IMG/VR virus record: IMGVR_UViG_3300027785_001786
DNA length: 64,000 bases
From: an uncultured virus (IMG/VR IMGVR_UViG_3300027785_001786)
Lineage: Duplodnaviria > Heunggongvirae > Uroviricota > Caudoviricetes
Direction: 5' to 3' (one strand)
Position numbers and translations under genes: made by a program. Position 1 is the stretch's first letter. Every line of letters starts with the position of its first letter. The notes below the pieces were generated by a model. The model ran no database searches, was not told the origin of the DNA, and saw nothing but the letters and a program-made list of their open reading frames with translations. Below are positions 2,732 to 62,232 of this stretch, piece by piece.

Positions 2732-2946
2732 TCTACATCTTCCTCAAACCATTCATTGACCATTTGTTCTGCTTCTGTTTGCGTAAGAGCAGGCACAAAA
2801 ATTCTAGCAGATTGTCCAACTGTATGCTGAATATCAAATTTTACTACCCCGGTTGGTATATGATCGAATTCACGCTCTACTACAAATTCTTGCAAGTTCT
2901 TTGCACGATAGATCAATTGATCCGTTAAGTCTTTGGCTGTTGTCAT
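2728..2946 (-). CDS. hypothetical protein
   Basis: ATGA-coupled ORF downstream of folE. Confidence 0.7.
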   Translation of the reverse strand: MTTAKDLTDQLIYRAKNLQEFVVEREFDHIPTGVVKFDIQHTVGQSARIFVPALTQTEAEQMVNEWFEEDVE

Positions 2947-3686: not shown

Positions 3687-3728
3687 TTAAATTCTCCGAT
3701 GTTAAGGCAGTGGATTGCCATATGTATT

Positions 3729-3757
3729 ATTATACATTATTATTTAGGTTTTTGCAA
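3729..3757 (-). promoter_or_regulatory. sigma70-type promoter for folE with an embedded CTAAATA late-type element
   Basis: Minus strand TTGCAA-N17-TATAAT; the spacer contains CCTAAATA. Confidence 0.7.
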
Positions 3758-3955
3758 ATTATTTGTTGCTCGAAGTTGTCTACATGCTTCGCGCATTTCG
3801 TTGGTAAAGTCCGGACTTATTTCCGAAAGTCCGCAATTGATCCAAACTCCGTCTGATTTTTTAGGTAGTGTTAAAAATATCAGTGGTATAACTACTAAAA
3901 ACACAATAGCACCTACTGCTATTCCTATATTCGCTCGGAAAGAAGAATTTTGCAT
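3740..3955 (-). CDS. small membrane protein
   Basis: N-terminal hydrophobic helix and two Cys. Confidence 0.6.
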   Translation of the reverse strand: MQNSSFRANIGIAVGAIVFLVVIPLIFLTLPKKSDGVWINCGLSEISPDFTNEMREACRQLRATNNLQKPK

Positions 3956-4131
3956 AACTCTGCATCCTTTATATTTTTAAAAGTAAAACTCATGTAATCG
4001 TGTTCCGGCCGGCTCTCATATCTATCACCCGGTAATCCAAAAACTTCTAATACCATAGCACAGGTTTCATTCCACCAGAAACCATTTTGGTTATCCCATA
4101 CTACTGTAATAGTATTATTGTTTTTGTTCAT
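3925..4131 (-). CDS. hypothetical protein
   Basis: In-operon ORF (WNETCAMVLEVFGLPGDRY). Confidence 0.65.
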   Translation of the reverse strand: MNKNNNTITVVWDNQNGFWWNETCAMVLEVFGLPGDRYESRPEHDYMSFTFKNIKDAELCKILLSERI

Positions 4132-4285
4132 GCTGTAACATTTTTAGTTCGTCCTCTAAGTATACCTTATATTCAGAAAGTATTTCTAGCTTACGACTAC
4201 TTTCTCCAGTATTACGTAGAGCTTCTAAGTCAACTATAACTTTAGCAATCTTTTCTTTAAGATCAATAATAGTTAACGAGTTCAT
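4115..4285 (-). CDS. small coiled-coil protein (56 aa)
   Basis: Translated by hand: MNSLTIIDLKEKIAKVIVDLEAL...HEQKQ. Fills the gap and is ATGA-coupled. Confidence 0.6.
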   Translation of the reverse strand: MNSLTIIDLKEKIAKVIVDLEALRNTGESSRKLEILSEYKVYLEDELKMLQHEQKQ

Positions 4286-4479
4286 TTCTTAACGCCAAAG
4301 CGCAATCCAGTTAAACTACCAAAGATTAAAAAGTAAGCGGCCCAAGTTTCCCATGTATATGGAATTGCTAACACTGGGAATAATGTATTAAGTGACCAAA
4401 TACCAAGTAATGGTCCAAATACGATTACTAACGCTACCAAAGTAAGTCCAACAATAAGTTTAATTAATGATGACATCAT
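4282..4479 (-). CDS. small membrane protein
   Basis: Two hydrophobic segments; coupled to the PRTase stop. Confidence 0.65.
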   Translation of the reverse strand: MMSSLIKLIVGLTLVALVIVFGPLLGIWSLNTLFPVLAIPYTWETWAAYFLIFGSLTGLRFGVKK

Positions 4480-4994
4480 TTCCAAAAATCCTCCCAAGGA
4501 TAAACTAACCAACAATCTTCTTCTGCTTTGTTAACTTCCCATACGGAATAGTCAACATCTTCTTTGCTACTAAGATTGTTAGTAAGTGTAGCAAAGCGTA
4601 CATTTTGTCCCCATACATGCTCCCAACGAGCATCGTTAGGCAAACAACCCGACTGCCAGTCTTGTTTAATCCAAGCAATAGTTGAACCTTGATCATTAAT
4701 GTCGTCAACGATAAGAATATTTTTACAACATGGATCACCAATTTCTGCCGCATTAAATCCAAACGCATCCTCTGCCATCCAGCAATTACTTTCGCTTTCA
4801 CCACCATCGCGTAATTGGACTTTAAGTGTTTCCATAGGAATGCCAGTGTATTGACTTAGTAAGTTTGCCGGAATTAATCCACCACGTGTAATTCCAACAA
4901 TGTAATCTGGTTTCCAATCGCCAATATTAATTTGTCTTGCAAGTTCTAACACTGCTCCTTGGATATCTTTCCATGTGTAATAAATTTTTTTCAT
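4476..4994 (-). CDS. type I purine phosphoribosyltransferase (Gpt/Hpt-like)
   Basis: IVGITRGGLIPA and the PRPP-binding loop ILIVDDINDQGST; C-terminal WLVYPWE. Confidence 0.88.
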   Translation of the reverse strand: MKKIYYTWKDIQGAVLELARQINIGDWKPDYIVGITRGGLIPANLLSQYTGIPMETLKVQLRDGGESESNCWMAEDAFGFNAAEIGDPCCKNILIVDDINDQGSTIAWIKQDWQSGCLPNDARWEHVWGQNVRFATLTNNLSSKEDVDYSVWEVNKAEEDCWLVYPWEDFWK

Positions 4995-45129: not shown

Positions 45130-45378
45130 TTAATAACTGCCGGTCAACGCCGCACGTTTCCAAGTGTCAGTTGCTGTGCAGATATAGATATAGTTAGCAT
45201 CCCAAGTGATTTGCCCAGCAGTACCGGTAGCAGTGGCCGTTTTGGTTCCGTTAGGAACAGTGCCTAATGCTGTATACAATTCGGTAAAGTTTGCATTTAC
45301 TTTTGTAAAAGCCGTGCGCAACGGGTCACCGTTCTTGGCATTGGCCGCAGTGCCAGTGTTAATTACTTGTTTAGCCAT
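45130..45378 (-). CDS. minimal fibre-attachment-domain protein
   Basis: INTGTAANAKNGDPLRTAFTKVNANFTELY plus WDANYIYIC. Confidence 0.7.
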   Translation of the reverse strand: MAKQVINTGTAANAKNGDPLRTAFTKVNANFTELYTALGTVPNGTKTATATGTAGQITWDANYIYICTATDTWKRAALTGSY

Positions 45379-48300
45379 TATACTCTCCCTACAGCAACTT
45401 GGATAATTCCAGCTTCGCCGTTGTCTTTGTCTTCCAGTGCTTTACCAATAATGCTACCTAGTTTTGGATCTGTAGCTCGCACAGCATAACCCGGTGTACT
45501 GGATGTTGTCAGCATGTCGCCTTTCTTCACACGACCCACTACCTTACATGGCACACGACCTGCCAATGCTAAACAAACACGCATGCCAGTTTGTGCATCG
45601 TTCATCACGTATGCTGGATTGGTTGTTACAACACCTGCTGAACGTGTGTCGTTCATTTCACCAGTGGTAGTAACTTCTTTGTCTCCACCAAACACCAACA
45701 CAGTACCTGGTTCGTATTCCTGATCACCTTCATAATATTCTGCCAAGTCAGCATAGGTAGCTTGTAGTTTACTTGCACCACTTAAAGTGTAAGTACCCTG
45801 CATTGTACAACCAGTAGCATCTGCGCCTGTTGATATAGTGGCCACTTTCAAAGTAACCAAACTTGCATCAAGCAAACTACTGGCCGCAAATTGCCACTGT
45901 CCGGTAATTGTACCTGCTGTGCCCGATGCACCAGTTGTTAAAGTCTTACTTTGTAGTGTAGCACCTGTTTGACTAAAATCGCTTGTACCGTAGAATGTAT
46001 TGGTAGAACTTGAAGTTCCCACAGCAGTTAAGAATTTAAAGTTACCTGGTGTATAAAATTCCAACGTTGTACTAGCAACTTGTAAAATGTTGCCACTTGT
46101 AGGTAACGAACTTATTTTAATACCTTTAACATCAACAACACCGCCACTGTCTGTTTGTACCAACATGTTGTTAGCACCGGTAGCAGTGATACCAATAACT
46201 CCGTATGCTTTGACACCAGTTCTAATAACAGCACCAGTTGAAGTTGCCAGTGTACCAGTACCACCAACTGGTATTGTAGTGCTATTTCCAGTTGATGAAA
46301 TATCTTGATTACGTATACCATCACCGTTGGCCACCATGGCCTGTGTAGTGGTAACACTGACTGCCGCAGCCACGCCGCTGATATTGGCCAACACACTGTT
46401 ACCAGTAATCCATTGCAACTTAGTTGATGGAACACCAGTTGACGTACTGGTTGAAGTTTGTAATGTTACCCAGCCGTCAGTAACAGTAAATTGACTACTG
46501 TCGTATTGACTTACACCAGTTGCGGCTTGTAGTGCGTCTATATCAATAGCAGTACCGGTGCCGCCACCAATTGTAAATGCTTGGAAAATTGTACCAGCAG
46601 TTCCAGCAGTAGCACCTGCCCATAAAGCAGTTCCTGGTGCAGTCCAGTTTGTAGTTCCCACTGTAGCAATTCTGTAACGTTTTCCTACAACAAAACTTCC
46701 TGCGGTAACTGTTACCAATGTCGGAACAGCACTAATTGTAGCAGTGGCCAAGTTCATTCCCAACTTGCTTTGTGCAATGGCCGCTGTTGCGCTGACCTTG
46801 CCGTCATTCACAGCACCGTTGCGGGTAAATGCTAATCTACCGCTTGGTGTTGTGTTATAAACCGCACTCATTGAAACTACACTGGCATTGATACTTCCGG
46901 TTACAACTTGGCTTCCAGTATATCCAGTACCACTAACGATCATTCCAGGAATAATGCCAGTTGAACTGTTTAATGTCAATAAGAAAACACTTCCGCCTGT
47001 ACATGTTGATACTTGTGGAATATTAATCAAGTATGTTCCAGCTCCGCCAGTGCCAGTAACTGAGGTAGTTGTTAATCCAGTATCAACAATATATGTTCCT
47101 GCTGTTACAGTACCACCAGTTAACATCATACCCTTTTGTACTGTGACTGTTGGACTTCCAGAAACAGTCAATATATTTCCACTAATGGTGGCACTAAATG
47201 TTCCAGTAGCCGCAGTACCACCACTAACATAGGTTGCATATACAACAGCACCTTGAATTGTACTAGTTAATGTGATGCCGTCCCAGTTTATGGTTAAATC
47301 ACCAGCTTTATCAAATGCCGCATTTGTCCATGCGCCTGACTGTAAGTTGTTATTAGCGTTGGTGAATCCCCAAACAGCAATTTGATTTTGTGCAACATTA
47401 AATTGCATACTTGATGCAGTATCTTTTAATTTAAAGAAACTGTCACGAGCATTAACAACGTTATCAACATACAGTTTGTTAGTGGCATCAGAATTTAAAA
47501 TTGGCAAGCCCATGCTACCAACTGTAAAGCCTCCCATTGACATATTGCCCTTCATTGGCAACTGCCCACTTAGGTTCATGTAACCAGAACCAATCAACGC
47601 TGTGGCAGGAGTTGTAGCACCTGAGTGTTGTACACCCAGCCTGTTGTCAATGTATCCACGTACCGCACTCTGCGTTGGCACAGTATCTGAAGCATCGTTG
47701 GTCATTGACGAGTCAGTTGAAAATTCACTAACTGTAACACCACGTTTAAATCCTAGTCCGTCCAAGTTGCTCAACGCAATTGAAGCTGAGAATGTAACTG
47801 TACCAGTACCTTGGTCAACTGTAAAGAATCTGCCCACACGGAAGATACCGTTTTGGTCAGTGGTTACATAGAACACACGACCAACTGTTTCTTCAAGCAC
47901 TTCGTTTGTTTGGTCTGCCTTCTGATACGGGTTACCAAAAATTTGATATGGATAGTTGGTAGTGTTATAACCGCCTGTACCAATGTCCAACAAGTCATGT
48001 GCTGAACAACGAGTAGTACTAATACGTGTTGTAATTTGTGCGGCAGTGCCAGAAAGGTAACCGGCACGTAACGGCTGTGCCACAGTGCTGTTCATCGGCC
48101 GACTAATACCAGTAATAATTGGTGTAAGTATCACAGGACTAGCAGTTTGTGACGGTGCTGTAAACGTTATGTTTCCGGTTGGAGTGCCACTTGGAGGAGC
48201 ACTAACAGTTAATGTAATTCCATCAGCATTGATATTTGTAACAAATTGACCTAAGAAGAAGCCGCTAGTTCCACCGCCTCGAACAATGTCACCTATAGCA

Positions 48301-51300
48301 ACACCTGTTGAGCTTGCAACTTTTAATGTTGTACCTACACTTCCTGATGGGTTATATGTACTAACCACTGTTGATTCTGGATCTACAGAATACGCCAGTG
48401 TTATACTAGTAAGTGAACTAGCAATGCATTGAACAAATTTGTTATAATCACTATTTCCATTTCCAGACACCTGATAGAATGTATCAACAATTGGAGCAAC
48501 ACTTTGAGTTGGAATTTCCAAAGTGGTGTACCATGGCCCGGCAACGCTACTTAATTCTGTAAATCCTAAAACTCCAAATGGCGTACTATCTGGAGATGCA
48601 CTCAACACTATTGTGGTAACTGGGGCCCCGCTAGTGCTTGCTGTTGCACTAACAACAGTTTGCCCGCTAGTGAATCCAGAACCAAATACTGACATGCCTG
48701 CTTTGATAAATTGTGTTCTATCACTGGTGTAGACTGTAATACTTGTACTTAAATTGTTGTATGTTAAAAATTGTCCTGTAGCAGTAGCAGTAGCAGTGGC
48801 ATTTAATACGACTGTGTTGGTTGTACAAGTTACTGTGACTGGACTACCACCGCCATTTGCTTGATTACTCATTACAATAGTGCTTGCACCAGTATTCAAC
48901 GAAATAATAACTGTACCAGCTACAATGCCAGTGCCACTAACTGGAGCACCTACCACTAGGTTAGTAAAACTGCCGACCGATGTTAGCGTAGCACTACCAT
49001 TAGTTGGTGTTGCAGTAAATGTTGTTGTACTGCTTGTACTTGCAACAGTGTTGTCTGAACGTGCAGTAACTGGAGCTTGTGTTAATGTAAATGTTGCGCC
49101 AGCAGTAGCAGTACCGATAGTTGTTGTTAAATCAAATACCGGTGTACTTGCAGTGGCTTTTGTAAATGAACTGGTAAGTTGAATACTGGTAGCACTGTTT
49201 ACTTTACCAATGTAATATGTTGTGCCAGTGGTATATCCACCAATACCGCCTGCACTGAATGTGCCAGTAACAGTGATAGCTTGTCCAACGGTATAAGTTC
49301 CGCTAGTTACTGTGGCAGTTCCTACCAAGTCTGCAATTGCAAACGAAGCAATAGTGGTTGTGGCCGCCACTGAAGTAATTCCAGTTACTGCGGCTCCGCC
49401 AAATGTTGCTGAAATAGTGATAGCATTGGTAGCAATGGTTTTGACATAGTACTGTGCTTGGTTAACAGCCGTGGCCAGTGTGAACGTCATGTCGTTGGTG
49501 CTGGTACTGCCACCCAACAGCGCACCATCAATTGTAATGGTATCGCCCACTACGTAACCAACACCCTGAGCAACTAATGTGATAGTGGTAAATCCGCTGT
49601 ATGCTGTGCCAGCACCAGTTTTGGTAATAGTAAATGTTGCGCCAGTGCCTTTGCCACTGCTGGACTTTGTCACCACCGCAGTATAAGTGGCCGCACTTGT
49701 AACACTGACACCTGATATAGGTGTATATGTGGTTGAACTGTTTAATCCGCCCCTAACAGGTATTCCACCAAATGTTGCTGTTGATGCTTGAAATGTGATT
49801 AAATTACCAACACTTAACAGTGTACCATTGTCTACTGTAATAGTGCTTGGGCTAGTTGTGCTGACCGCAGACACAGCGACCTGACTATTTAATCCTACTC
49901 CTGCAATGCTTGTTCCAGCACCTAAATTGGTTAAACTGTTTACACCGAGAATACTTGCACTACCACTTGTGATGTTACCTAGGAAACTACCTGTTGGAAC
50001 ATAAGTTGCGGCCACTTGCCCTCTACTTTGTATTCTTGTAATGGTAATTGGATTAGCATCTGTACTTGTGATACTGTATTTGATTGCACCCAGAGTAATA
50101 AACGGTATCGTTGATTTAGTAAATGTTAAAACTCCGCTTGGGGTACTTGTTGGGCCGGCAGTTAATACAACAGTATCGCTAATCCTTGCATAAGTAAGTC
50201 CGGATGGTGTTCCTGCACTACTTGTAATAAACACTGGAGTTTGCGCAATAGCATTTGCATATGAACTGGCTAATTGAATACTGGTAGCACTGTTTACTCT
50301 ACCGATGTAAAAAATAATGCCGGCAGTCATATTGCTGGTTGCGCCAGAACTGTATGTGGTACCTCCTACTGTCAGTGATCCAGTGCTACCAAATGTTCCA
50401 GTTATAGTGATAGCTTCACCGACCACATACGTTCCACTAGTTACGGTTACAGTTCCTACTGTATCAGCAATCACAAATGAAGCAATATTATTTGATGAAA
50501 TACTCAAAACAGATTGACCACTGGTAAATCCAACAGCACTGACTATCATGCCTGTTAAAATACCCGAAGTACTACCATATGTAAATGTAGCACCACTACC
50601 AGTACTCACAGCGGCCGCACTTAGAGCAATGCTGGAAGACCCTGTATTGATACTGATAATTGTAGTTCCAGCAGGAATACCAAATCCTGTGATTAATTCT
50701 CCAACCACAAGTCCAGTAAAGCTACTTACAAATGTAACAGTAGACGAGGCACTGGCAATTGTTCCAGTAAATGTTCCACCAATAACTAAAGTAGTTCCGC
50801 TAGATCCAGTTGGATTGTATCCTGTAATAACTGTAGTTGTTATAGGTGCAGTGTAACTGGTAATTCCGTGTACTTTACCACCAAATGCAAAAGCGTATGT
50901 GCCTTTATTAACTTGGTCAATATTTTGTTGCGGGCCAAATGCAGTTACCGCAATGCGTGTGTCGCCTGGTGTGGCCCCCATGGTTTTTGCACCGCCGTCA
51001 ACTGGGTCGGGCTTTGTGATATTTCCAGTGTCTGCTTGGAATAGATAGTAGGAAAATGATTGGTCAGTACTTAAAATAGCCTGGAAAGCTGGCAATATTT
51101 CGTTAGTGGCTTCTGTCAAGTTGTATGTTAAAACACGATAGATACTGCCCAAGTTATCAGTAAATTGAACAGCAGTACTTGGACGGGTTGGGTTTACGTT
51201 GTCAATTTCATAAAACTTGAAGTTTTGTAACATACGCAGTTGGACCAGCTGGCCGTCATACAATGGAGCGGCCAAACCAGTGCTAGATGTTCCACCCGAC

Positions 51301-54300
51301 CCGCTTGTGCTTAGTGTTAACAAGAGAACATTTTGTCCGCCAATTGTGGCACTTGTATATGCACTGGATGTTTGAATTGCGGTTACTGTACCAGCAGTGG
51401 GAGTTGTTCCTCCTACCACTGCGTATGTGATACTTGTGCCTGAAACGATACTGGTAATAACAATTGTTGTTGGAGTACCACCAAACAATGTACCAGTACC
51501 TGCTGTGGCACTCAGGGTATTACCAACACGCATACCAGTAGTTGAAGTTATTCCAGTAATGGTCGCAGTCCATGGAGCACCTGATGTGCCACTACCTGCA
51601 ATAGTTCCAACAGTGCCGGAACCAAACAACGGAGTTACGATGATATTAAAGTTTGAATACACACCAATAGCACTGCTTGATGTAGAGAATAAATTGTTGT
51701 ATACTGCACTACCACCAGTTACAGCATTTCCAGTATAGATAAATGTTGCAAGGGCAGTGTTCACGATTCCAGTTACATAAGCAGTTAAGTCGTTGCCCGC
51801 ATTACTGCTGAATGTTGATCCTGATGCTGTTGCACTGGCAACATTACTTAGAATAACAGTGTTGCCTCCTGTAGTTGCCAATGCTGTTGTTCCAAACGGA
51901 ATATTAGGGCCTGTGATAGTGGCACCGTTAAAGTAATAAGTTGTTGCTGATCCACCACTTGAACCTGGATCAACAGTGTAACGCAATGTTATACTGGTCA
52001 GTGTACTACCAACACATACAAATGTTCCATTGTAATCAGTATTGGAATTGCCAGCAATAGTGAATAATCCACCAACCAATGGTATGGTAGTTACTGCCGC
52101 AGTGGTAAATGTAACAAATACGTTTGGAGCAGTTCCTGTTTTTGCTAGATAGGTAGCTGATGTTGTTACTGGTGCTTGGATTGTTGTGTAATTTACAGTA
52201 CTAAACACTCCAGGGTCACTAGCATAACTTATTGTAATAGTGGTAAATGTACTCGAAGATACAGTATTGCTACCATTATAGCTGGTATTGGAATTGCCGC
52301 TGATTACATATCCGCTGGACGGTGTTGGAGCAGATAGCTGAGTTGGAATATTAAATGTTACTAAGTAAGGACCTGTTCCTGTTTTGCTTACATAACCTGT
52401 AACCAACAATGCTGGGCTTGTGCGTATTGCGGCCAATGTGCCAGCACTGGCAATAAAGTTAGTATTCAAAGCAGTGTTACCACTAAATGAACTTGAAACT
52501 CCTCCAAGACTTGCACCGCTAACAATTACTGTATCACTAAAATACAAAGTTCCGCTTGGAGTGGAGTCTGGAGATCCGTCCAATGTTAAAGTGATACCGT
52601 CTAGACTAATGCCTGTAACTTTTTGGTTGCGTGTGAATCCAGTTCCAGTTACAGTTTGTCCAATTTTAATATTTGCTGTGCTGTTAACAGTCATAGTAGT
52701 ACTTGCAGTGCTACCTGTGGCAAATGTTGCTGATGCATAAGCATAGTTAGAACCAACACTACCAGTTGGCACATAAACTGTTGTATGGCTAACTGAGTTA
52801 ACCTGATAACGTACGATACCTTTACCAGCTAACGAATGATCAATTTCTAATTCTGTGATTTGAGTTGGATAATAATCGTAAGAATAAACGTACACGCTGA
52901 TAGCCGCAGTATTCATGTTGCCGTAGAACGCATTACCGGTTGAACTTTGTGGTAATGTTGTTGGATTAAAGATACGTGCAGTTTGCATCAAGTTTTGTGC
53001 AAGTGAAACTGTGTCTGGTTTTTCAGTCACATCGTATCCGCTGGCACGTAACGCATACTGACCGTGTGCGCTTGAGCTACCAACAGAACGAATCTGCCCA
53101 CCATTCAAGGCCCAAAACGCTGTCCAACAGTAGTATGTGAATGTTGAAACTTGTTCAGTGAGACCGCCGTTGGTTGCAAGAATAGCATAGCCCAAGTCAT
53201 TAATCATGGCAAAGTCATTAGCCAACATGGATTTATTACCAGCCATTTCAATATTAATTTTTTGTCCAGCGCCCCCAAGCCATGGTGTTTGAGCACCAAG
53301 ATTTAATTGAACAGTTCCGCCAATAACATTTCCATTCACATCAAATGTTTGTGCATAATTGCTTACAGTATTAATCTGATAACGGCCGCCACGCACAAAG
53401 AATGCACTAGGAGTTTGGGGAGCACGTATGTCTAATCCACTATTAACACCGCCTGTTACAATTAATGTAAATCCGTCAACACTTGCGAATGTTATTTGTC
53501 CAAACAAACGTCCGGCAAATCCATCTACAAATTGTCCACCGGCAAAAACTTGTTTGTTTTGGCTTCGGCTAAAACTGGTAGCAACCTGTCCATACGGTGA
53601 TTTAGATTTGATTTGGCCTTCTGGATCCAGCACCATCATAAATCCGCCATGACCTTCACCGGTCATGTTGTTCATACGTACAGCATTACCGCATAAAAAT
53701 ACGTCAATGTCTCTATTGTTCTTTGGAGTACTGTTTATATCCGCCGGGTCAGTCAAATAATGACGTCCGTAGTTTTTAGTTTCATAGAGATGCCATGAAG
53801 TAGGTGCAAGAACACCAAACGATATAGAACTCACACTGGCCTGCGCCCCGCTGGTCGCTCCAATAATAGCACCGTTGGTGTTTGACATGATGCCCGAAGT
53901 AACTTTATAAGTTAACTGTGTTGCTGTTGCTGAAATAACAACGCCAGTAGCACTGGATGTTGTTCCGCTTTGTGCAATTGTTTCGCCTACTGCAAATGTA
54001 AAAGCATTTGTATAGTTAATTGTTGCTACCGCTGTTTGTGTAAACGGATACATCACTGTGGCATTCATGAAGTTACCAGATACACTGTCAACTACTGCAC
54101 GACCAGGCTTGCCGTTGCTGTCTAATACATCCGATTGGAATACATAGCCTAGATAACTGACACTGACCTGTGTGTTACTACTCAATGTAATAATAATTTT
54201 GCCAACAGTTCCGCTGATAGTCGCTGTAACTAATGGTCCGATAGTTGAAACAGTACTTGTGCCATATGTTCCTGGATCACTTGCATAACGCAATGTAATT

Positions 54301-57300
54301 TGTGTAGTAGAACTTGCAACACAAGTGAATGTTCCATTATAAGACAAGTTTGTATTGCCAGCAACCGTATATGTTAATAAGGTGCTGGGGGTAAATGTTT
54401 GCGTAGGTATATTAAACACAACATCGTATGCACCACTACCAACACTGGTCTTGCTTACAAAACTAATGAGGTTTGTAGATGGAACATAGTCAACACTGTT
54501 ATCAATAGGACCAATCTGCATACCGTCAATGACTGAATCGCGGTAGAAGAATAGTTTACGCCATGGACTTTGACTAACTCGATCCAATGGTCGAATAATT
54601 GTTCTACGGAATTCATCACCTTTGATTGAAACGTTGGCGGTTAATCGTATTGGGTAATCTTCGTTGTAAATACCAGCTTCAACAAATATAACAATTTGCA
54701 ATGCACCGACACTTTCAGCAAATTCTAATTCTTCATTATTTGCTTGGTCAAAGAATCCAGGTTGTAGTAACTGGCAAGTGATTGTGTCATTTGATGCACC
54801 AGTTAATGATCCAGGACTATAGCTTAATATATTTGCTGTGGCACCAGAAGAACCACCTCGTAAAATTTTTCCTGGCAAAATATTAAAATCACCAGGAGGG
54901 CATTGGTCAACATAGCCGTTGCCGCCGTTGGTAAATGTAATGGTATAGATACCTGTTCCAAAGTCTGGTGTAGGTGCAACACCTACACCATTAACTACAA
55001 TGCTTAACATAATAGCATAGTTGTTGGTAAATGTGGTAATAGCTGTAATGGTAAAAGTTAATGCGCCGCTTGGTGTACCATTAGCGGCCGCACTTAATGT
55101 AAGTTGATTTCCATTCACCGCAGTAACAACTTGTCCAGCAGTATATCCAGTGCCCGATACGGTCATACCAACTTTGACAGTTCCACTTATGCTGGTAACA
55201 TTCAATGTAGTGCTGGATGATGTTGAATATGTAGCAGATGCAGTGTATCCTCGATTTGCATCTTTACTACCGTCCACGGCCTGCGTTACCAACACTTGAT
55301 AACGACTTGCAACTGTTTGATTTAAAACTTGCAATCCTAAAGTTCTAGCATATTGAATACCATCGAGAGTTTCTGTCAACTGTGTTGTAATAGCTAGCCT
55401 AGCACTGGCACTTTTGTAATAACTCTTACCAGCATTGATACTTTGATATGTGCCACCACTTAACAGATCAATGCTCATGGCATCAACAATATATCCCACG
55501 TCTCTGCGACAAAGGGCTTCGTTATAGTTGAAGCCGCCTTTGTATTTTTCATTTAAGTAAGTTGTGGTTGACTGTGCAACTGTTAATGCATTGGCTAAAA
55601 TTGTAGAACGCACTGCAACATAACCTGTACTAGCATATGAACTATTGGTTAAATCTGGTGTTGCTGTAACCAAGTTGGGAGGATTAAGATCTATTACATT
55701 AATAATTCTATCCCACTTGGTATTCATAGCGGTAACAGCACCAGCTCCATCTGTATAAGTTCCGCTGGTTGTTTGAGCCAATTCAAATGTAGTGGTGGTT
55801 GCAATACTCCATGTACCAGGATCACTTGGGTAAGAAATTGTTGTACTGGTTGATGTACTGGCAGTTACTACGAATGTCCCGTTGTAACCAGTATTTGAGT
55901 TGCCGGCCACTGTAATTTTTTCACCAACTGGGATTGGTATAATTCGAGTAGGTGTAGATAGTCTAACTAGATAAGGGCCCGATCCGGCCTTGGATATAAA
56001 TGTCGCTGTCTTGGGTAAAATACTTTGATACAGCGCACTTGGTGGATTGTTACCGATGATAGAAGCAGATATTGTTTGCAGATAACTAAGACTGGCTACC
56101 TTGGCTGCTTTTTCAGTTGGATCAATAGCACTGGTATATACTGTTAGCGCATTTACTACTGCACTGGTCCAAAATTGATTGGCCGCAGTAGTTGAGCCAC
56201 TTAACCCGCCGTAAGTCAAATCATAGGCCACTGCTTCCACAAGCAATTGCACATCTTTCTGCCATTGTATTTGGCCGTCAGCATCAACATAATTTAGTGA
56301 TGCGTAATTTTGTTTGATCCAACCAGTAACTTCTGCTGATATAAATCCAACGTTGGCCAATAATAATTGAGATGCACTATTAAATGGAGACCCTAATGAA
56401 GAAGGCGCAACTAATGATACACTTGTTCTATTTGCCAAGCTGAACAACAGTGTATTAGTAATTGTATTGAACAACGCGGTAATCTGCGTGATAGCAGTTG
56501 CATTATTAATATATGGATATGTGTTGTTAACAAACGTTATGGTATTGGTAATTGCTGAAGTTTTTGCAGAATTAATATTTCCATAAACTGTTACCAGTGT
56601 TGCGGCACCTGCGGCATAATTTGGCGGCGTAACAGCAGGCGCATTGTTAGCTGATATCAACCCTGCCCATGTTGCTGTTGTTGTAACTTGTGTATTTGTT
56701 AATGTAATTGCCGAGCCGCCCGACGATGATGAAATTTTGAAACGTGTGGCATCTGTAATTTCAATTACATAGTAAGCTGTGCCGCCAGTAATGCCGCCAA
56801 AGTAAGGAGTAATAGTTGTTGCACCACCTCCATAAACACCAGGATCATTAGGATAGCTAAGGGTAACTGTTGTAGGTGTAGAACTGTTAACAGCAAAATT
56901 ACCGTTGTAACTGGTGTTGGCATTGCCGGCCATGGTAAATGATGTGTTAGCTAAAGGTTGCACAGTCCATGCTGGTACTGCAAACGTTACCAAGTATGGG
57001 CCTGAGCCTGACTTACTTTGGAAACCAGTAACAGTTATAGCAGATGCTAGGTCAAAAGTTAACAACATACCAGCAGTCATATTTGTTGTGCTAGCAGTTG
57101 TAATTCCACTAATGCTATTAGTAGCAGTAATTGTAAATGTAGTGCCTGAAATAAGTGCAACTAAATTTGAAATAGTTGGGCCTTGTGCCGCGCCGCCAGT
57201 GTATGTTTGATTCTGATACTGATTAACACTGTTTTGATAAACTTGTGCTGGTCCAACATTATTAATAATTGCTTGCGCCAGCGTATTGATATATGCAATG

Positions 57301-59201
57301 GCACCCTTGGTCGCCGCAAGTTCGCTACTAGCAATCTGTCTAACGGCATTTTCCCAATATCTTTGTCCTGCATAAACAGTTCTGCTGTTACCACCATACA
57401 ACTGATCATATGCAATGGCTTCCATAATGTAAGCAACATCTCGTTTACAAGTAGTTTGACTATATGCTAATTTTGGATAATTGGCCGCTATCCAAGCAAT
57501 AATTTCAGCCTGTGCAAATGCTATGTTGTTCAATAACAAAGTTCTTGCGCTTTGTTTTGCTATGCTTGAACTGCTGGTTGCAGTCATGATCAATGCTGGT
57601 TCAATACCGCCCTGAACCACCACAATCATGGCATTGATGCAACTGGTAATTCTATCCCGAGCAACCGTTACTGGGTTACCACCAATTTGTGCTAAATTAT
57701 TTAATTCTAGTTTTAACTGGCCGAGTGCTCCAACTATTTCTTCAACTGTTAATCCGGTAGCCGCATCTGGATAATATCTAGCAGAAACGATACTCTGATA
57801 GTTGGAATTCAACACCATGTCATAATTAACAGCATCGATCACAGAATTAAGATAGGTAGTAAGCGAAGCAGAGTTATAGGCAAAAGCCAACACTTCATCT
57901 CTGGCATAGTTAATAGCATCAACAGTCTGAATCAATTGATTACTAATAATTGCGGAATTTTGCTTTGCAAAGTAAGAAGTGGCAAATTGCAGACTATTGT
58001 AATTAGAACCAATCACAAGGTCAGTGCCAACTGCTGTTAAAATTGATGCTATGTCACTTTGATATCTAACTTGGTCGTAAGTGAATGTGTTTACATATTT
58101 GTTATTGATGTATGCAATAGTTTCTGCTTGAATGAATGCTTTGTTTGCAGTGAGCAATGCCGCGGCATCTTCATAACCAGCAACACCTGTATTTCCGCCA
58201 CTGCGTGTGACAGATTGTATTGTTGAGTTAAACTGATTGGGACTAATTGTAAAGCTGATCTTTTGACGATATGGCCCAGGTTCCAAGCTGGCCAGACTTT
58301 GTAGTGTTTCAGCTTGAAGTGCGGCCGCACCAATAGTTTTATAAGCATGTGCCCAGTTCCGGCCTTCGCGTCCGGGAGGAGTTTTTAATTGTGTGTCATC
58401 GCCGTCTGTGCGTACATACAAGTTGGTTGAGCTGACAAATACTTCATTATCAACATAAAATTTTGTAGCGGCCTGCTTGTCATCTGCACTGTTTGGAGTG
58501 CCAAAGCCAGCTACTGGAGCAGGATGATCGCTGAGAGTCAACTTGCCAATCATTGTGTCACCGCCACGATACACTGTATTTTTACGTGGCAATGCTTCGT
58601 TTGATAGATAGTTGCTAGTTAACGTTGAATCATAAGTTATGTCAGTTAAATCTGGAGTCAGCGGTTCATCACGTAAACGCAATGCTCCTACAACCACGTT
58701 GCCGTCGCCTTTGCCAACATAGTGAGTGTCAGCATAACCCTTGCTAATTGCCAATTTATCAATAGTTGTTGAAATACCAAGACTTGCATACGTGGCATTG
58801 AACGCATTGACCAATGCTGAGCTTGGATCAGGAATGTTACCAACTGCTAAATTATTAATGTTTAATGGTCCACCTAAACGAGGAGCAATGTCGTTTCTCA
58901 AATCGGATGTGGTACCAACCAAACGTAATTCGCCAGCACGGCTGTTATCAATACTAACACCTCCAGTGGCAGTTAGTGTTTTAGCAAGTATTGATGTGCC
59001 TGCACCGTTAGTAATAAACACCTGATCAGCAGTATAGCTATCCGGAGTATCCCCTAGAGCAGTGAATTTAATCGTGCCGCCCAGGCCAAAAATTGCATAT
59101 ACTTCTGTAAAGTTATCATTTACCTTGCGGAACGAGTCACGAATACTGTCGCCTGTGCCGTCATTACCTTGTATACCAATATCAATTTCTTGTTTTGCCA
59201 T
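45378..59201 (-). CDS. giant (4607 aa) tail fibre/receptor-binding protein with a C-terminal autoproteolytic chaperone-like domain
   Basis: N-terminal GNDGTGDSIRDSFRKVNDNF, many internal repeats, C-terminal ADLAEYY...GTVLVFGG...GRVPCKV...IIGKAL. Confidence 0.8.
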   Translation of the reverse strand: MAKQEIDIGIQGNDGTGDSIRDSFRKVNDNFTEVYAIFGLGGTIKFTALGDTPDSYTADQVFITNGAGTSILAKTLTATGGVSIDNSRAGELRLVGTTSDLRNDIAPRLGGPLNINNLAVGNIPDPSSALVNAFNATYASLGISTTIDKLAISKGYADTHYVGKGDGNVVVGALRLRDEPLTPDLTDITYDSTLTSNYLSNEALPRKNTVYRGGDTMIGKLTLSDHPAPVAGFGTPNSADDKQAATKFYVDNEVFVSSTNLYVRTDGDDTQLKTPPGREGRNWAHAYKTIGAAALQAETLQSLASLEPGPYRQKISFTISPNQFNSTIQSVTRSGGNTGVAGYEDAAALLTANKAFIQAETIAYINNKYVNTFTYDQVRYQSDIASILTAVGTDLVIGSNYNSLQFATSYFAKQNSAIISNQLIQTVDAINYARDEVLAFAYNSASLTTYLNSVIDAVNYDMVLNSNYQSIVSARYYPDAATGLTVEEIVGALGQLKLELNNLAQIGGNPVTVARDRITSCINAMIVVVQGGIEPALIMTATSSSSIAKQSARTLLLNNIAFAQAEIIAWIAANYPKLAYSQTTCKRDVAYIMEAIAYDQLYGGNSRTVYAGQRYWENAVRQIASSELAATKGAIAYINTLAQAIINNVGPAQVYQNSVNQYQNQTYTGGAAQGPTISNLVALISGTTFTITATNSISGITTASTTNMTAGMLLTFDLASAITVTGFQSKSGSGPYLVTFAVPAWTVQPLANTSFTMAGNANTSYNGNFAVNSSTPTTVTLSYPNDPGVYGGGATTITPYFGGITGGTAYYVIEITDATRFKISSSSGGSAITLTNTQVTTTATWAGLISANNAPAVTPPNYAAGAATLVTVYGNINSAKTSAITNTITFVNNTYPYINNATAITQITALFNTITNTLLFSLANRTSVSLVAPSSLGSPFNSASQLLLANVGFISAEVTGWIKQNYASLNYVDADGQIQWQKDVQLLVEAVAYDLTYGGLSGSTTAANQFWTSAVVNALTVYTSAIDPTEKAAKVASLSYLQTISASIIGNNPPSALYQSILPKTATFISKAGSGPYLVRLSTPTRIIPIPVGEKITVAGNSNTGYNGTFVVTASTSTSTTISYPSDPGTWSIATTTTFELAQTTSGTYTDGAGAVTAMNTKWDRIINVIDLNPPNLVTATPDLTNSSYASTGYVAVRSTILANALTVAQSTTTYLNEKYKGGFNYNEALCRRDVGYIVDAMSIDLLSGGTYQSINAGKSYYKSASARLAITTQLTETLDGIQYARTLGLQVLNQTVASRYQVLVTQAVDGSKDANRGYTASATYSTSSSTTLNVTSISGTVKVGMTVSGTGYTAGQVVTAVNGNQLTLSAAANGTPSGALTFTITAITTFTNNYAIMLSIVVNGVGVAPTPDFGTGIYTITFTNGGNGYVDQCPPGDFNILPGKILRGGSSGATANILSYSPGSLTGASNDTITCQLLQPGFFDQANNEELEFAESVGALQIVIFVEAGIYNEDYPIRLTANVSIKGDEFRRTIIRPLDRVSQSPWRKLFFYRDSVIDGMQIGPIDNSVDYVPSTNLISFVSKTSVGSGAYDVVFNIPTQTFTPSTLLTYTVAGNTNLSYNGTFTCVASSTTQITLRYASDPGTYGTSTVSTIGPLVTATISGTVGKIIITLSSNTQVSVSYLGYVFQSDVLDSNGKPGRAVVDSVSGNFMNATVMYPFTQTAVATINYTNAFTFAVGETIAQSGTTSSATGVVISATATQLTYKVTSGIMSNTNGAIIGATSGAQASVSSISFGVLAPTSWHLYETKNYGRHYLTDPADINSTPKNNRDIDVFLCGNAVRMNNMTGEGHGGFMMVLDPEGQIKSKSPYGQVATSFSRSQNKQVFAGGQFVDGFAGRLFGQITFASVDGFTLIVTGGVNSGLDIRAPQTPSAFFVRGGRYQINTVSNYAQTFDVNGNVIGGTVQLNLGAQTPWLGGAGQKINIEMAGNKSMLANDFAMINDLGYAILATNGGLTEQVSTFTYYCWTAFWALNGGQIRSVGSSSAHGQYALRASGYDVTEKPDTVSLAQNLMQTARIFNPTTLPQSSTGNAFYGNMNTAAISVYVYSYDYYPTQITELEIDHSLAGKGIVRYQVNSVSHTTVYVPTGSVGSNYAYASATFATGSTASTTMTVNSTANIKIGQTVTGTGFTRNQKVTGISLDGITLTLDGSPDSTPSGTLYFSDTVIVSGASLGGVSSSFSGNTALNTNFIASAGTLAAIRTSPALLVTGYVSKTGTGPYLVTFNIPTQLSAPTPSSGYVISGNSNTSYNGSNTVSSSTFTTITISYASDPGVFSTVNYTTIQAPVTTSATYLAKTGTAPNVFVTFTTAAVTTIPLVGGLFTIAGNSNTDYNGTFVCVGSTLTSITLRYTVDPGSSGGSATTYYFNGATITGPNIPFGTTALATTGGNTVILSNVASATASGSTFSSNAGNDLTAYVTGIVNTALATFIYTGNAVTGGSAVYNNLFSTSSSAIGVYSNFNIIVTPLFGSGTVGTIAGSGTSGAPWTATITGITSTTGMRVGNTLSATAGTGTLFGGTPTTIVITSIVSGTSITYAVVGGTTPTAGTVTAIQTSSAYTSATIGGQNVLLLTLSTSGSGGTSSTGLAAPLYDGQLVQLRMLQNFKFYEIDNVNPTRPSTAVQFTDNLGSIYRVLTYNLTEATNEILPAFQAILSTDQSFSYYLFQADTGNITKPDPVDGGAKTMGATPGDTRIAVTAFGPQQNIDQVNKGTYAFAFGGKVHGITSYTAPITTTVITGYNPTGSSGTTLVIGGTFTGTIASASSTVTFVSSFTGLVVGELITGFGIPAGTTIISINTGSSSIALSAAAVSTGSGATFTYGSTSGILTGMIVSAVGFTSGQSVLSISSNNIASFVIADTVGTVTVTSGTYVVGEAITITGTFGSTGSLTVGGTTYSSGATSNMTAGIIFYIGRVNSATSIQLASSYANAIAQTPVFITSSAGTPSGLTYARISDTVVLTAGPTSTPSGVLTFTKSTIPFITLGAIKYSITSTDANPITITRIQSRGQVAATYVPTGSFLGNITSGSASILGVNSLTNLGAGTSIAGVGLNSQVAVSAVSTTSPSTITVDNGTLLSVGNLITFQASTATFGGIPVRGGLNSSTTYTPISGVSVTSAATYTAVVTKSSSGKGTGATFTITKTGAGTAYSGFTTITLVAQGVGYVVGDTITIDGALLGGSTSTNDMTFTLATAVNQAQYYVKTIATNAITISATFGGAAVTGITSVAATTTIASFAIADLVGTATVTSGTYTVGQAITVTGTFSAGGIGGYTTGTTYYIGKVNSATSIQLTSSFTKATASTPVFDLTTTIGTATAGATFTLTQAPVTARSDNTVASTSSTTTFTATPTNGSATLTSVGSFTNLVVGAPVSGTGIVAGTVIISLNTGASTIVMSNQANGGGSPVTVTCTTNTVVLNATATATATGQFLTYNNLSTSITVYTSDRTQFIKAGMSVFGSGFTSGQTVVSATASTSGAPVTTIVLSASPDSTPFGVLGFTELSSVAGPWYTTLEIPTQSVAPIVDTFYQVSGNGNSDYNKFVQCIASSLTSITLAYSVDPESTVVSTYNPSGSVGTTLKVASSTGVAIGDIVRGGGTSGFFLGQFVTNINADGITLTVSAPPSGTPTGNITFTAPSQTASPVILTPIITGISRPMNSTVAQPLRAGYLSGTAAQITTRISTTRCSAHDLLDIGTGGYNTTNYPYQIFGNPYQKADQTNEVLEETVGRVFYVTTDQNGIFRVGRFFTVDQGTGTVTFSASIALSNLDGLGFKRGVTVSEFSTDSSMTNDASDTVPTQSAVRGYIDNRLGVQHSGATTPATALIGSGYMNLSGQLPMKGNMSMGGFTVGSMGLPILNSDATNKLYVDNVVNARDSFFKLKDTASSMQFNVAQNQIAVWGFTNANNNLQSGAWTNAAFDKAGDLTINWDGITLTSTIQGAVVYATYVSGGTAATGTFSATISGNILTVSGSPTVTVQKGMMLTGGTVTAGTYIVDTGLTTTSVTGTGGAGTYLINIPQVSTCTGGSVFLLTLNSSTGIIPGMIVSGTGYTGSQVVTGSINASVVSMSAVYNTTPSGRLAFTRNGAVNDGKVSATAAIAQSKLGMNLATATISAVPTLVTVTAGSFVVGKRYRIATVGTTNWTAPGTALWAGATAGTAGTIFQAFTIGGGTGTAIDIDALQAATGVSQYDSSQFTVTDGWVTLQTSTSTSTGVPSTKLQWITGNSVLANISGVAAAVSVTTTQAMVANGDGIRNQDISSTGNSTTIPVGGTGTLATSTGAVIRTGVKAYGVIGITATGANNMLVQTDSGGVVDVKGIKISSLPTSGNILQVASTTLEFYTPGNFKFLTAVGTSSSTNTFYGTSDFSQTGATLQSKTLTTGASGTAGTITGQWQFAASSLLDASLVTLKVATISTGADATGCTMQGTYTLSGASKLQATYADLAEYYEGDQEYEPGTVLVFGGDKEVTTTGEMNDTRSAGVVTTNPAYVMNDAQTGMRVCLALAGRVPCKVVGRVKKGDMLTTSSTPGYAVRATDPKLGSIIGKALEDKDNGEAGIIQVAVGRV

Positions 59202-59206
59202 TTTTA

Positions 59207-59530
59207 TTAAACTCCGAAGCTAGAACCGCAACCGCATGTTGATTTTGCGTTGGGATTTGTGATTGTGAAAGAACTGCCTGCAAGCTCTTCTTTATAGTCT
59301 ATTTCTGCACCCTGCAGATATTGCATACTCATTGCATCTACAAGTAACTTAAATTCATCTAGAGGAACTTCAAAATCATCCTCATTCATTACATCGTCAA
59401 AAGTAAAACCGTAGCTAAAGCCACTACAGCCTCCACCTTGTACAAAAGTGCGTAATGATAATTGGGGATTGTTTTCTTCAAGGAGTAGGTCCTTGATTTT
59501 TGTTTTTGCTGACTCGGATATAGTGATCAT
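59207..59530 (-). CDS. erpA: A-type Fe-S carrier protein (ErpA/IscA)
   Basis: [31 protein letters not shown]. Start taken as MITISES. Confidence 0.92.
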
Positions 59531-59588
59531 GATTGCCCTCGATATGATATTTATCAAACCAATTTTATAATCCGAATGTAAATAGTAT

Positions 59589-59876
59589 ATGTTCATACGC
59601 ACTGAGTTTAGAGAATCACATCATGTACGCACCAGCAATAGGGGCATTACTCATACCTACAAGCGTAAAAAAACTGTGGTTGTGCTACAATGTGATGCAT
59701 GTAGCGAAGTAATTTATCGAGATAAAGGAAGTATGGATCCCAAACGCATAAACAATAATTTTTACCATGTGTGTGCTGACTGTGACCCAAAAAAGTTTGC
59801 ACAACTCAAAGGTGTAGAAGCACGTAAGATTTGGGATATACCGGCTAGTAGCTTAAAAACTATAGGCCAATTATAG
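59589..59876 (+). CDS. hypothetical zinc-binding protein
   Basis: CDAC and CADC pairs; TGTAAATA immediately upstream. Confidence 0.7.
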
Positions 59877-60430: not shown

Positions 60431-61453
60431 CTATACTAATTTTAGTTCTACTGCCCTATTGTACACTTGCTCACTGCTCAAGTTTTTACCTTTGCTTTCA
60501 CACATGATGTCAAAGTTTTCCCAGAAGCCCAACGCCCAATCAGTCACTGGCTGATTCCAGTACCAATCACTGTGTGCCCGCATCTTTTGTTTCTTGTAGC
60601 CTTGTGCTAACAGTTCAGTATGATCTGGCAACACATTCACTGGGTGATCCACCAACACATCTTCTCTACTCACACTGTAATGGCATACTGGCCGTACACC
60701 ACGCCAAGAATCAATGATACGTTTGACTCTATCATCTGCAGGCTGAATGTACTCGCCGGTGCGAATCCAATGATGGTGAATGTCCAATACCAGCGCACAG
60801 TGATCCACCAGTTCAATACTGCTATCCACACCCCAGCAGTTCTCATCATTCTCAATAGTGATGCAGTTACGGGCTTCGGGGCTCAACTTCTTCAGCGTTT
60901 CTTTGATGCCTTCAGGACCACGCTTGCCTGAAATATGCACATTGATCTTCATGTCTTGGAATGTCTTACCAAAGCCCATCCATCTAGCCATGTCCGCATG
61001 ATATTCAAATTCTTCAATGCTACGTTCTACGATGCCGGGATTCTCACTGGCCAGCACACAGAACTGTCCTGGATGGAAACTAATACGCACATCATGTTTG
61101 CGAGCGGCTTCACCTACTGGAGCAAAGATACGTTCGCAATGCTGTTGTTGATCTGGATGTTGCCACCAAGTAATCCAATCTTTTTCAGTGTAGCCACTCA
61201 GCATTTCAGATCCAATACGCATCATTCTGCGCTCAGGTGGCAGAGTAGCAACTTTTTCAATCATTTTAACCGCGGCACTTGTGTTGTGATTCATCAAGTC
61301 ATATTGACGTTGTTCAGCTTCAAGCGGATGTTCACGCAACCATCGCATGGTGGTACTGCGACCATTCATTACTCTATTAGCGGCATTTACTTTCATGCCT
61401 CTCACTTCACTAGCATCGTCTAACCATTTGCAAGCATAGCCTATACGTTTCAT
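60431..61453 (-). CDS. uvsE: UV damage endonuclease
   Basis: RIGYAC, ISFHPGQF, ITIENDE, LVLDIHHH, HYS, AHSD, IMCESKGK. Confidence 0.92.
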   Translation of the reverse strand: MKRIGYACKWLDDASEVRGMKVNAANRVMNGRSTTMRWLREHPLEAEQRQYDLMNHNTSAAVKMIEKVATLPPERRMMRIGSEMLSGYTEKDWITWWQHPDQQQHCERIFAPVGEAARKHDVRISFHPGQFCVLASENPGIVERSIEEFEYHADMARWMGFGKTFQDMKINVHISGKRGPEGIKETLKKLSPEARNCITIENDENCWGVDSSIELVDHCALVLDIHHHWIRTGEYIQPADDRVKRIIDSWRGVRPVCHYSVSREDVLVDHPVNVLPDHTELLAQGYKKQKMRAHSDWYWNQPVTDWALGFWENFDIMCESKGKNLSSEQVYNRAVELKLV

Positions 61454-61710: not shown

Positions 61711-62131
61711 TAGCTAAAAGCTCAGCCATTTTGTCATATGCCATTTTGGCAAACATTTCACAGCCTACACCTGGAACAATTCTTAGATCGCACAGTGCGC
61801 CGCGCTCGTGTGGCAGTTTGCTTAGATGATCTTTACTTTCAATATCCACCATCTCATTCATATGTTTGAAAAATTCCAGCATAGGATCGTCTTCAGCAAC
61901 CACTAGTGTGTGATCGAACATAGAATCGGCCCAGGCCTTAAATTCTTTTAAGCCACCAAAGTCCATGCACCAGTTTTTGTCATCTAGAGTATCACATTCA
62001 AATATTAATTTGATACCAATTGAATAACCATGTATTGTTGAGCAATGGCTGTGTGTGGCACGCCATTGTCTAAAACAGCAGGATAAGCCTCTGTCGTTAC
62101 CGTAAGTTTTTGTTGAGTAAAATTTTGCCAT
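61616..62131 (-). CDS. queD: 6-carboxytetrahydropterin synthase
   Basis: CSTIHGY, MDFG.LK, FDH, GCEMFA, VFEH..NSA. Confidence 0.9.
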   Translation of the reverse strand: MAKFYSTKTYGNDRGLSCCFRQWRATHSHCSTIHGYSIGIKLIFECDTLDDKNWCMDFGGLKEFKAWADSMFDHTLVVAEDDPMLEFFKHMNEMVDIESKDHLSKLPHERGALCDLRIVPGVGCEMFAKMAYDKMAELLASGDMHYPINPTVRIKSVEVFEHGANSATYEG

Positions 62132-62204
62132 TGTATTCTCCTTGAATAAGCAATGACACGCAGAGTTTATATTGCGGGATGAGCGTCTTAGTCCGCATGT
62201 AGTA

Positions 62205-62232
62205 ATTATACGCTTTTATGCGTAAAGGTCAA
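62205..62232 (-). promoter_or_regulatory. sigma70-type promoter for queD-uvsE
   Basis: TTGACC-N16-TATAAT. Confidence 0.7.

Follow-up and report, generated by a model that had tools for sequence, protein, structure and literature searches.

A conserved pseudoknot in the leader of phage queD genes, a candidate riboswitch acting on queD translation

The window analysed here is a stretch of 64,000 nt from an uncultured virus of the Caudoviricetes (IMG/VR record IMGVR_UViG_3300027785_001786), and all positions are counted from its first base. On its minus strand lies a gene whose product matched Pfam PTPS with 58.4 bits and phrog_2389, annotated as 'QueD-like 6-pyruvoyl-tetrahydropterin synthase', with 123.2 bits. 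Against the NCBIfam QueD model TIGR03367 the product scored 35.1 bits, under the cut-off of 89.25. The gene is preceded by a sigma-70-like promoter, and from the spacing the transcript is predicted to start near 62198, about 1 nt ahead of helix P1. The leader reads, 5' to 3', (A)UGCGG-ACUAA-GACGC-UCAUC-CCGCA-AUAUAAAC-UCUGC-GUGUC-AUUGCUUAUUC-AAGGAG-AAUACA-AUG. The pseudoknot core covers 62155-62197 of the minus strand (~43 nt), the Shine-Dalgarno sequence (SD) is 12 nt 3' of P2, and no terminator follows the motif in the window. The positions of the features are collected in Table 1.

The first-pass annotation had described a preQ1-riboswitch-like pseudoknot in this leader, and its parts were found where it had placed them. 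These are the 5-bp P1, the C (C62178) immediately 5' of the 3' strand of P1, the A-rich tail AUAUAAAC, the loop GACGC that is complementary to GUGUC, and the SD downstream of the knot. It had also treated an A rather than a U after P1 as a departure from the preQ1 class. This difference is meaningless, because the position is variable in relatives (U in 46, A in 39 and C in 8 of 93).

Table 1. Positions of the queD leader elements and of the related genes in the window
Feature	Position	Strand	Remarks
QueD-like gene, 171 aa	61616..62131	-	ATG 62129-62131; Pfam PTPS, phrog_2389
-35 box TTGACC, sigma-70-like promoter	62227..62232	-	11/12 matches, spacer 16
-10 box TATAAT	62205..62210	-	11/12 promoter matches
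P1 5' strand UGCGG	62193..62197	-	P1 paired in 98.7% of cells (A2); 4/5 pairs changed on both sides
L1 ACUAA	62188..62192	-	second base C invariant (93/93), then a variable-length stretch, mostly gaps or U
P2 5' strand GACGC	62183..62187	-	junction-anchored canonical pairing, 93 sequences
L2 UCAUC	62178..62182	-	U62182, C62181, C62178 invariant (93/93)
P1 3' strand CCGCA	62173..62177	-	P1 covariation
L3, A-rich part AUAUAAAC	62165..62172	-	A at every second position, 93/93 (three positions)
UCUGC between A-rich tail and P2	62160..62164	-	U, C, G, C 93/93; middle U 92/93
P2 3' strand GUGUC	62155..62159	-	common to knot and ribosome-site-masking hairpin
Masking hairpin	62126..62158	-	folding; start codon in stem, SD in loop
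Shine-Dalgarno AAGGAG	62138..62143	-	read from sequence
FolE	2943-3686	-	profile match
QueE-like radical SAM enzyme	1491-2351	-	profile match
Xanthine/hypoxanthine-type (purine) phosphoribosyltransferase	4476-4994	-	profile match
2OG-Fe(II) oxygenase-like ORF	467-1042	-	weak match

The window belongs to a giant phage. Among the records analysed, the nearest is an 85.7-kb fragment (sister record G001) that is rated 23% complete, and a related complete record has 354,959 bp with terminal repeats. Far from queD, a cluster of deazapurine genes occupies 467-4994 of the minus strand. In five related records, FolE was matched in four, a QueE-like protein strongly in four, the transferase in four and QueC weakly in three, and Pfam TGT/DpdA in none of the five. 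We speculate that the transferase hints at a base that becomes a nucleotide rather than being swapped into finished DNA. Among the pathway genes of the window, the RNA was found at queD only; an extra copy ahead of folE was considered and rejected, the leader there being different.

Several other features of these genomes were recorded. An ORF of 4607 aa at 45378-59201 (minus strand) is rich in Thr/Ser/Gly repeats, and our guess is a giant fibre or surface protein. A gene for an IscA-like Fe-S assembly protein (59207-59602, Pfam Fe-S_biosyn) adjoins this ORF, and a UvdE UV endonuclease gene (60431-61453) lies near it. Pfam Radical_SAM matches were unusually many for a phage genome, with 14 in G002, 9 in G004 and 16 in G005. 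In the complete 355-kb relative, the QueE-like match (G003:C1:141922-142818) holds one in-frame TAA, for which a split gene, an error and a recoded stop are all conceivable explanations.

Folding of the window leader as a single sequence did not go beyond chance. Its nested minimum free energy (MFE) was -11.4 kcal/mol, compared with -10.65 kcal/mol for shuffles (z -0.32), and 79 of 200 shuffles folded as well, in a model that has no pseudoknots. P1 was not chosen by the nested MFE fold, and the P1 hairpin by itself had -6.1 kcal/mol. Because the window sequence alone gives no decision, the comparison with relatives decides.

A QueD protein scan of viral contigs gave 267 candidate stretches, 263 of which were confirmed, and the best 80 of the 263 were kept (77-100% identity). 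The motif was present in the same place in 79 of these best 80 queD loci. The single relative without it (L042, 80% identity) has an unrelated upstream sequence. The window and 55 distinct relatives were aligned with MAFFT (alignment A1), leaving out L001, whose 5' end is cut, and L002, which is identical to the window and is represented by the window row. P1 was paired in 98.6% of the cells of A1, and four of its five pairs had changed on both sides. The covariation score was 0.352, while shuffles gave 0.145 (0/500 reached the score) and partners slid against each other gave at most 0.139. A covariance model built from A1 (R1) scored 63.5 bits at the queD leader of the window, and elsewhere in the window it gave only matches of at most 9.5 bits (E > 1). 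Each of five large related phage records carried one strong R1 copy, the second-best match reaching at most 17.2 bits.

The viral contigs were also scanned independently of queD, with a pattern of 16 bases derived from the columns that do not vary, which was found in at least 120 stretches. R1 matched 79 of the 80 loci fetched from these (34.9-69.7 bits), and the remaining one, L100, was a chance pattern match. Aligning 100 matches to R1 gave alignment A2 with 93 distinct sequences, in which the pairing of P1 was kept (Table 1). Both-sided change occurred in all seven P2 pairs, in an alignment fitted to a model that already contains P2. The covariation score of A2 was 0.396, with shuffles at 0.140 (0/500 reached the score) and slid partners at no more than 0.120.

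MAFFT and the model leave the variants with a 4-bp P2 out of register, so P2 was recounted with its pairs anchored before L2 and after UCUGC. Over the 93 sequences, pairs 1 to 5 were canonical in 92.5, 94.6, 92.5, 81.7 and 82.8%, respectively. The mean was 88.8%, compared with 58.0 +/- 2.6% when the 3' strands were shuffled (0/1000 reached it), and slid registers never kept more than one or two positions paired. All four Watson-Crick types occurred at P2 pair 1 (U:A in 41, C:G in 21, A:U in 14 and G:C in 9 of the 93 sequences). The G:U pairs fit the queD-sense strand only.

A FastTree phylogeny was built from 124 QueD proteins, and 41 of the 165 leaders were dropped because their ORF fell short of 140 aa or their locus name was a duplicate. 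On this tree, at least 19 pair-type changes were needed for P1 pair 1 and at least 31 for P1 pair 3, and P2 pairs 1 to 5 needed at least 47, 51, 34, 33 and 15, counts of independent change that recombination of whole short leader variants may inflate. Changes of this number are not a few inherited ones. A test of covariation in the queD leaders of related phages had been proposed as a check on the first-pass annotation. Both helices proved to covary over at least 93 distinct sequences, and the comparison confirms a conserved H-type pseudoknot in the queD leader.

Thirteen bases were invariant in all 93 distinct sequences: the top G:C of P1, the C of L1, the U, C and last C of L2, the three alternating A's of L3, and the U, C, G and C of UCUGC. 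Eleven of them are unpaired. P1 has 5 bp, P2 ranged from 4 to 7 bp across the leaders, the length of L1 varied by up to about 7 nt, and in 4 leaders L2 was a variant of 6 nt. The base before the invariant last C of L2 was U in 74, C in 13 and A in 6 of the 93 sequences. An alternative pairing between UCUGC and the 5' strand of P1 was ruled out by eye, since UCUGC is invariant while P1 varies.

A mutual-information scan showed that L3 positions 4 and 6 track the middle pair of P1. When this pair was C:G, position 4 was a pyrimidine in 79 of 81 sequences and position 6 was A in 80 of 81. When it was A:U or U:A, position 4 was A in 42 of 42 and position 6 was U or C in 37 of 42. In 13 phylogenetically independent pairwise comparisons across supported branches, about 11.8 agreed in direction and 0 were opposed (median p about 0.0005 and 0.001); the L3 and P1 bases concerned lie at most 10 nt apart, and exchange of whole leader variants could mimic the link. 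Base triples of L3 with the P1 groove are described for preQ1-I in PMC11625349. The covariation of L3 with P1 is what L3-P1 groove base triples would give, by analogy with preQ1-I.

The motif is closely linked to queD. A QueD homologue follows it in 77 of the 80 fetched pattern loci (of at least 120), with 29-94% identity to the window protein. In L103 the downstream ORF appears QueD-like by eye, and in L161 the motif is separated from a queD-like start by a 113-aa ORF, cupin-like by eye (327-665, minus strand). The RNA accompanies queD even among QueD lineages that have diverged widely. The next gene 3' of queD varied among 20 loci and was UvdE, a DAHP-synthase-family enzyme, an epimerase, PsiE, NT5C, a cupin, a DAO oxidoreductase, a radical SAM protein, or an ORF that had no Pfam match. 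In L040 a cupin ORF (2027-2368, Pfam Cupin_2) is directly 3' of queD, and the cupin ORF of L161 and L040 may be a pathway accessory gene.

Outside these viral contigs the motif was nearly absent. One genome for each of 185,579 species was scanned with a strict pattern, which covers GCGG-type P1 only and therefore undercounts, and 8 matches were obtained. Five were chance matches inside coding sequence, and three were real; these lie on Bacteroidota-labelled contigs from metagenome-assembled genomes, and queD follows the motif in every case. These bin labels are a lead to the host, not proof. A blastn search of the leader against 50,697 phage records gave matches only inside coding sequence. 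Ten queD loci of cultured phages carried no motif (best 6.9 bits with filters off), and in most of these ten loci queD abuts the upstream gene. The pseudoknot is a real, strongly supported structured RNA specific to phage queD.

Directly upstream of the motif, TTGACN-N16-18-TATAAT was found in 49 distinct related leaders. Many other relatives have the motif straight after the upstream gene, with no adjoining promoter. In the window, the promoter spacer contains a dyad, TACGC-N6-GCGTA (62209-62224, minus strand), whose 3' arm enters the -10 box. Related leaders keep this dyad with changed letters (TGCACT/AGTGTA, TACACT/AGTGTA, TGCGCT/AGCGTA and TACAG/CTGTA), and 39 of the 49 distinct promoter-bearing leaders have one of at least 4 bp, as a raw, uncontrolled count. 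The dyad may act as an operator, or it may form a hairpin where the RNA of the upstream gene ends.

The 3' strand of P2 also has a partner downstream. In the window, UGUCAUUG (62151-62158) pairs with CAAUGGCA (62126-62133), and an inner helix joins UAUUC (62144-62148) with GAAUA (62134-62138), with the SD in its loop. This masking hairpin has -10.8 kcal/mol, and -5.7 kcal/mol when GUGUC is withheld. The part downstream of UCUGC was folded alone (platform-only MFE) in 165 distinct leaders. The P2 3' strand paired with the AUG and positions +4 to +15 in 108 of the 165, with +4 to +15 only in 3, with the AUG only in 1 and with the SD in 47. This adds up to 159 of 165 leaders in which it masked the SD or the start region; in the other 6 it was unpaired, had fewer than two bases paired or paired elsewhere. 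In 8 leaders with a different second codon (GAUGACUU in place of GAUGGCA), both strands of P2 differ accordingly, with AAGUCAUC on the 3' side and AAGACUU on the 5' side. The P2 5' strand mimics the start region, and each of the rival helices closely resembles the other.

When the P2 3' strand was withheld, the mean platform energy of the 165 leaders rose from -8.8 to -4.2 kcal/mol, the openness of the SD from 0.46 to 0.72 and that of the AUG from 0.28 to 0.39. A gain of more than 0.2 in SD or AUG openness was seen in 140 of the 165 leaders and a loss of more than 0.2 in 45, in two-state folds that ignore pseudoknot energies and in which the same leader may count in both groups. Because the knot and the masking helix share the P2 3' strand, they are mutually exclusive, and formation of the knot, which withdraws this strand, should open the ribosome site. 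In the window's leader type, a residual hairpin (-5.7 kcal/mol) would still lie over some of the start region once P2 has formed, which counts against the switch reading proposed below.

The Rfam covariance-model search proposed in the first-pass annotation assigned the leader to no preQ1 class and to no other convincing family. At gathering level over the whole window no preQ1 family matched, and none did at E <= 10 in searches of 601 nt and of the 81-nt leader. The preQ1-I model RF00522, run alone on the 85.7-kb sister record, which holds the leader, had no match at E <= 10 (gathering score 39 bits), and 18 diverse relatives matched neither a preQ1 family nor freshwater-2. The freshwater-2 RNA motif (RF02980) was the only Rfam family that touched the region, with 15.6 bits over 62129-62225 (E 9.6, gathering score 49.9), and it was rejected; the remaining matches were unrelated noise. 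It matched mostly through the SD-ATG stretch and the promoter-spacer hairpin, and the hairpin aligned is the promoter-spacer dyad, not the pseudoknot.

The likeness to preQ1-I claimed in the first-pass annotation holds for the core, and membership of the family does not. As outlined in PMC11625349, preQ1-I is a small H-type pseudoknot of types I-III with a 5-bp P1, a conserved G:C and an A-rich L3, and either UC or AC stands before its P1 3' strand, with the C as the specificity base. The queD element likewise is an H-type pseudoknot with a 5-bp P1 and an invariant top G:C, an A-rich L3 that apparently docks on P1, and a gene of queuosine/7-deazaguanine synthesis downstream. Its invariant C62178 stands where preQ1-I, as described there, has the specificity C, and mostly follows a U. 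In contrast to preQ1-I, its P2 is longer and its L1 starts with N-C and is variable in length. L3 of preQ1-I runs directly into P2, whereas the queD element has the UCUGC insert in between. preQ1-I switches OFF, its P2 3' strand including bases of the SD in the translational type and competing with an antiterminator in the transcriptional type, whereas P2 of the queD element holds no SD and the wiring is opposite. Uncultured phages carry the queD element, and bacterial genomes almost never do.

The preQ1-II (RF01054) and preQ1-III (RF02680) classes are also pseudoknotted leaders of que-related genes, with larger architectures in which either the fold itself or a distal helix buries the SD (PMC11625349). 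Their models did not match the queD element in the Rfam searches. The adenine (add) riboswitch is a translational ON switch in which a strand of the aptamer is shared with the helix that masks the ribosome site, and the ligand-bound fold frees the site. The shared-strand ON logic is alike in the queD leader; the add riboswitch differs in being a three-way junction rather than a pseudoknot and in serving salvage or export genes rather than a biosynthetic gene. A search of CC-licensed PubMed Central and bioRxiv texts, with subscription journals beyond its scope, found no description of the motif. On our best reading, the leader would work like a small pseudoknot riboswitch outside the catalogued families, a new candidate with a preQ1-I-like core that is wired ON.

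The structure is conserved and linked exclusively to queD, and one of its strands has two rival pairings. The leader has the general features of a riboswitch, namely a conserved aptamer-like part, an overlapping expression platform and a consistent gene link. We believe, with somewhat better than even confidence, that the pseudoknot is a candidate ON riboswitch acting on queD translation; we infer the binding of a ligand, its identity and the direction in vivo. In the proposed mechanism, a compact H-type pseudoknot heads the queD mRNA and would control queD translation in cis. The P2 3' strand would choose between the P2 5' strand in the knot and the start-codon region or the SD in the masking hairpin, and formation of the knot would remove the masking strand and leave the ribosome site open. 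A small molecule that stabilises the knot would make this a riboswitch wired ON. That a ligand may tip the balance is suggested by the invariant loops and by rival helices that are nearly equal in strength.

The ligand probably has a guanine-like face, because the invariant C before the 3' strand of P1 sits as in preQ1-I. The substrate of QueD is 7,8-dihydroneopterin triphosphate, and this or a similar pterin is a candidate, as is a 7-deazapurine such as preQ0 or CDG. The ligands suggested in the first-pass annotation, a deazaguanine intermediate, guanine or a pterin, would likewise be possible. The fuller reading is a new riboswitch class confined to phages (uncultured and mostly giant), in which a preQ1-I-like core and UCUGC bind such a guanine-faced metabolite of the pathway and turn queD translation ON. 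We regard this fuller reading as possible, at a little under an even chance. Two points count against a ligand-operated ON switch: such a switch is unusual ahead of a biosynthetic gene, and a P2 of up to 7 bp might fold unaided.

A translational element that works without a ligand is a rival reading. Here the knot would form unaided during transcription, or through temperature, Mg2+, a phage or host protein, or QueD itself, and would set the fraction of mRNA that escapes the masking hairpin. P2 is G+C-rich enough to form unaided, 85 of 165 leaders having a contiguous helix of at least 5 bp; the hairpin of P1 alone has -6.1 kcal/mol, and the aptamer-like part is transcribed ahead of the rival partner. 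The 11 invariant unpaired bases and the L3 positions that track a P1 pair, however, surpass what a simple unmasking helix needs and resemble the pockets of small pseudoknot riboswitches. Near-mimic rival helices are typical of switches poised for outside input, and the motif is bound to one metabolic gene, not to phage genes generally. We consider a ligand-independent element unlikely, yet deserving of real weight.

An ordinary member of preQ1-I that binds preQ1 (or preQ0) and turns queD OFF, like the bacterial preQ1 riboswitches, is considerably less plausible, in our judgement quite improbable. The fold type, the 5-bp P1 with its invariant top G:C, the [U/A/C]C before the P1 3' strand, the A-rich L3 and the que gene downstream would all suit it. 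Against it stand the failure, at E <= 10, of RF00522 to match the sister record and of any preQ1 model to match the leader or the 18 relatives, the invariant UCUGC and the long L1, which have no preQ1-I counterpart, and a P2 that includes no part of the SD or of a terminator and whose 3' strand is the anti-ribosome-site strand. A chance pair of hairpins, or a DNA-level promoter or terminator feature that has no function as RNA, would fit a single-sequence fold no better than shuffles and a motif that adjoins a promoter. It is opposed by the compensatory change in both helices, by the strand-specific G:U pairs, by the many relatives in which the motif comes right after the upstream gene, and by a constant position relative to the SD and ATG. 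The wide spread of QueD identity also speaks against an artefact of near-identical contigs. We give chance or a DNA element hardly any credence.

QueD catalyses the committed step from a GTP-derived pterin to the 7-deazaguanines. The candidate element is abundant in viral metagenomes, phage-specific and only ~43 nt long, and it stands at this committed step. PMC6884629 and bioRxiv 10.1101/2023.04.13.536721 describe 7-deazaguanines in phage DNA as a shield against host restriction enzymes. PMC9004378 calls riboswitches rare in phages and lists only glutamine and psbA examples. If a metabolite is bound, the element would extend the best-studied minimal riboswitch fold by a further ligand or a new wiring, phages would time DNA hypermodification through metabolite sensing, and a very small natural ON switch would be at hand for engineering. 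If the reading as a new class is true, it would be the first riboswitch known to gate a phage pathway of DNA-base modification and the first natural ON switch on a preQ1-I-like fold.

A minor feature was noticed by eye in leaders of the SD-masking type. In L011, L014, L020, L086 and similar leaders, the hairpin loop is TGCTATAAT or TGCTAAAAT. Judged from its letters, this loop resembles an extended -10 promoter box within the leader. Such an internal box, if active, would yield a transcript that lacks the pseudoknot.
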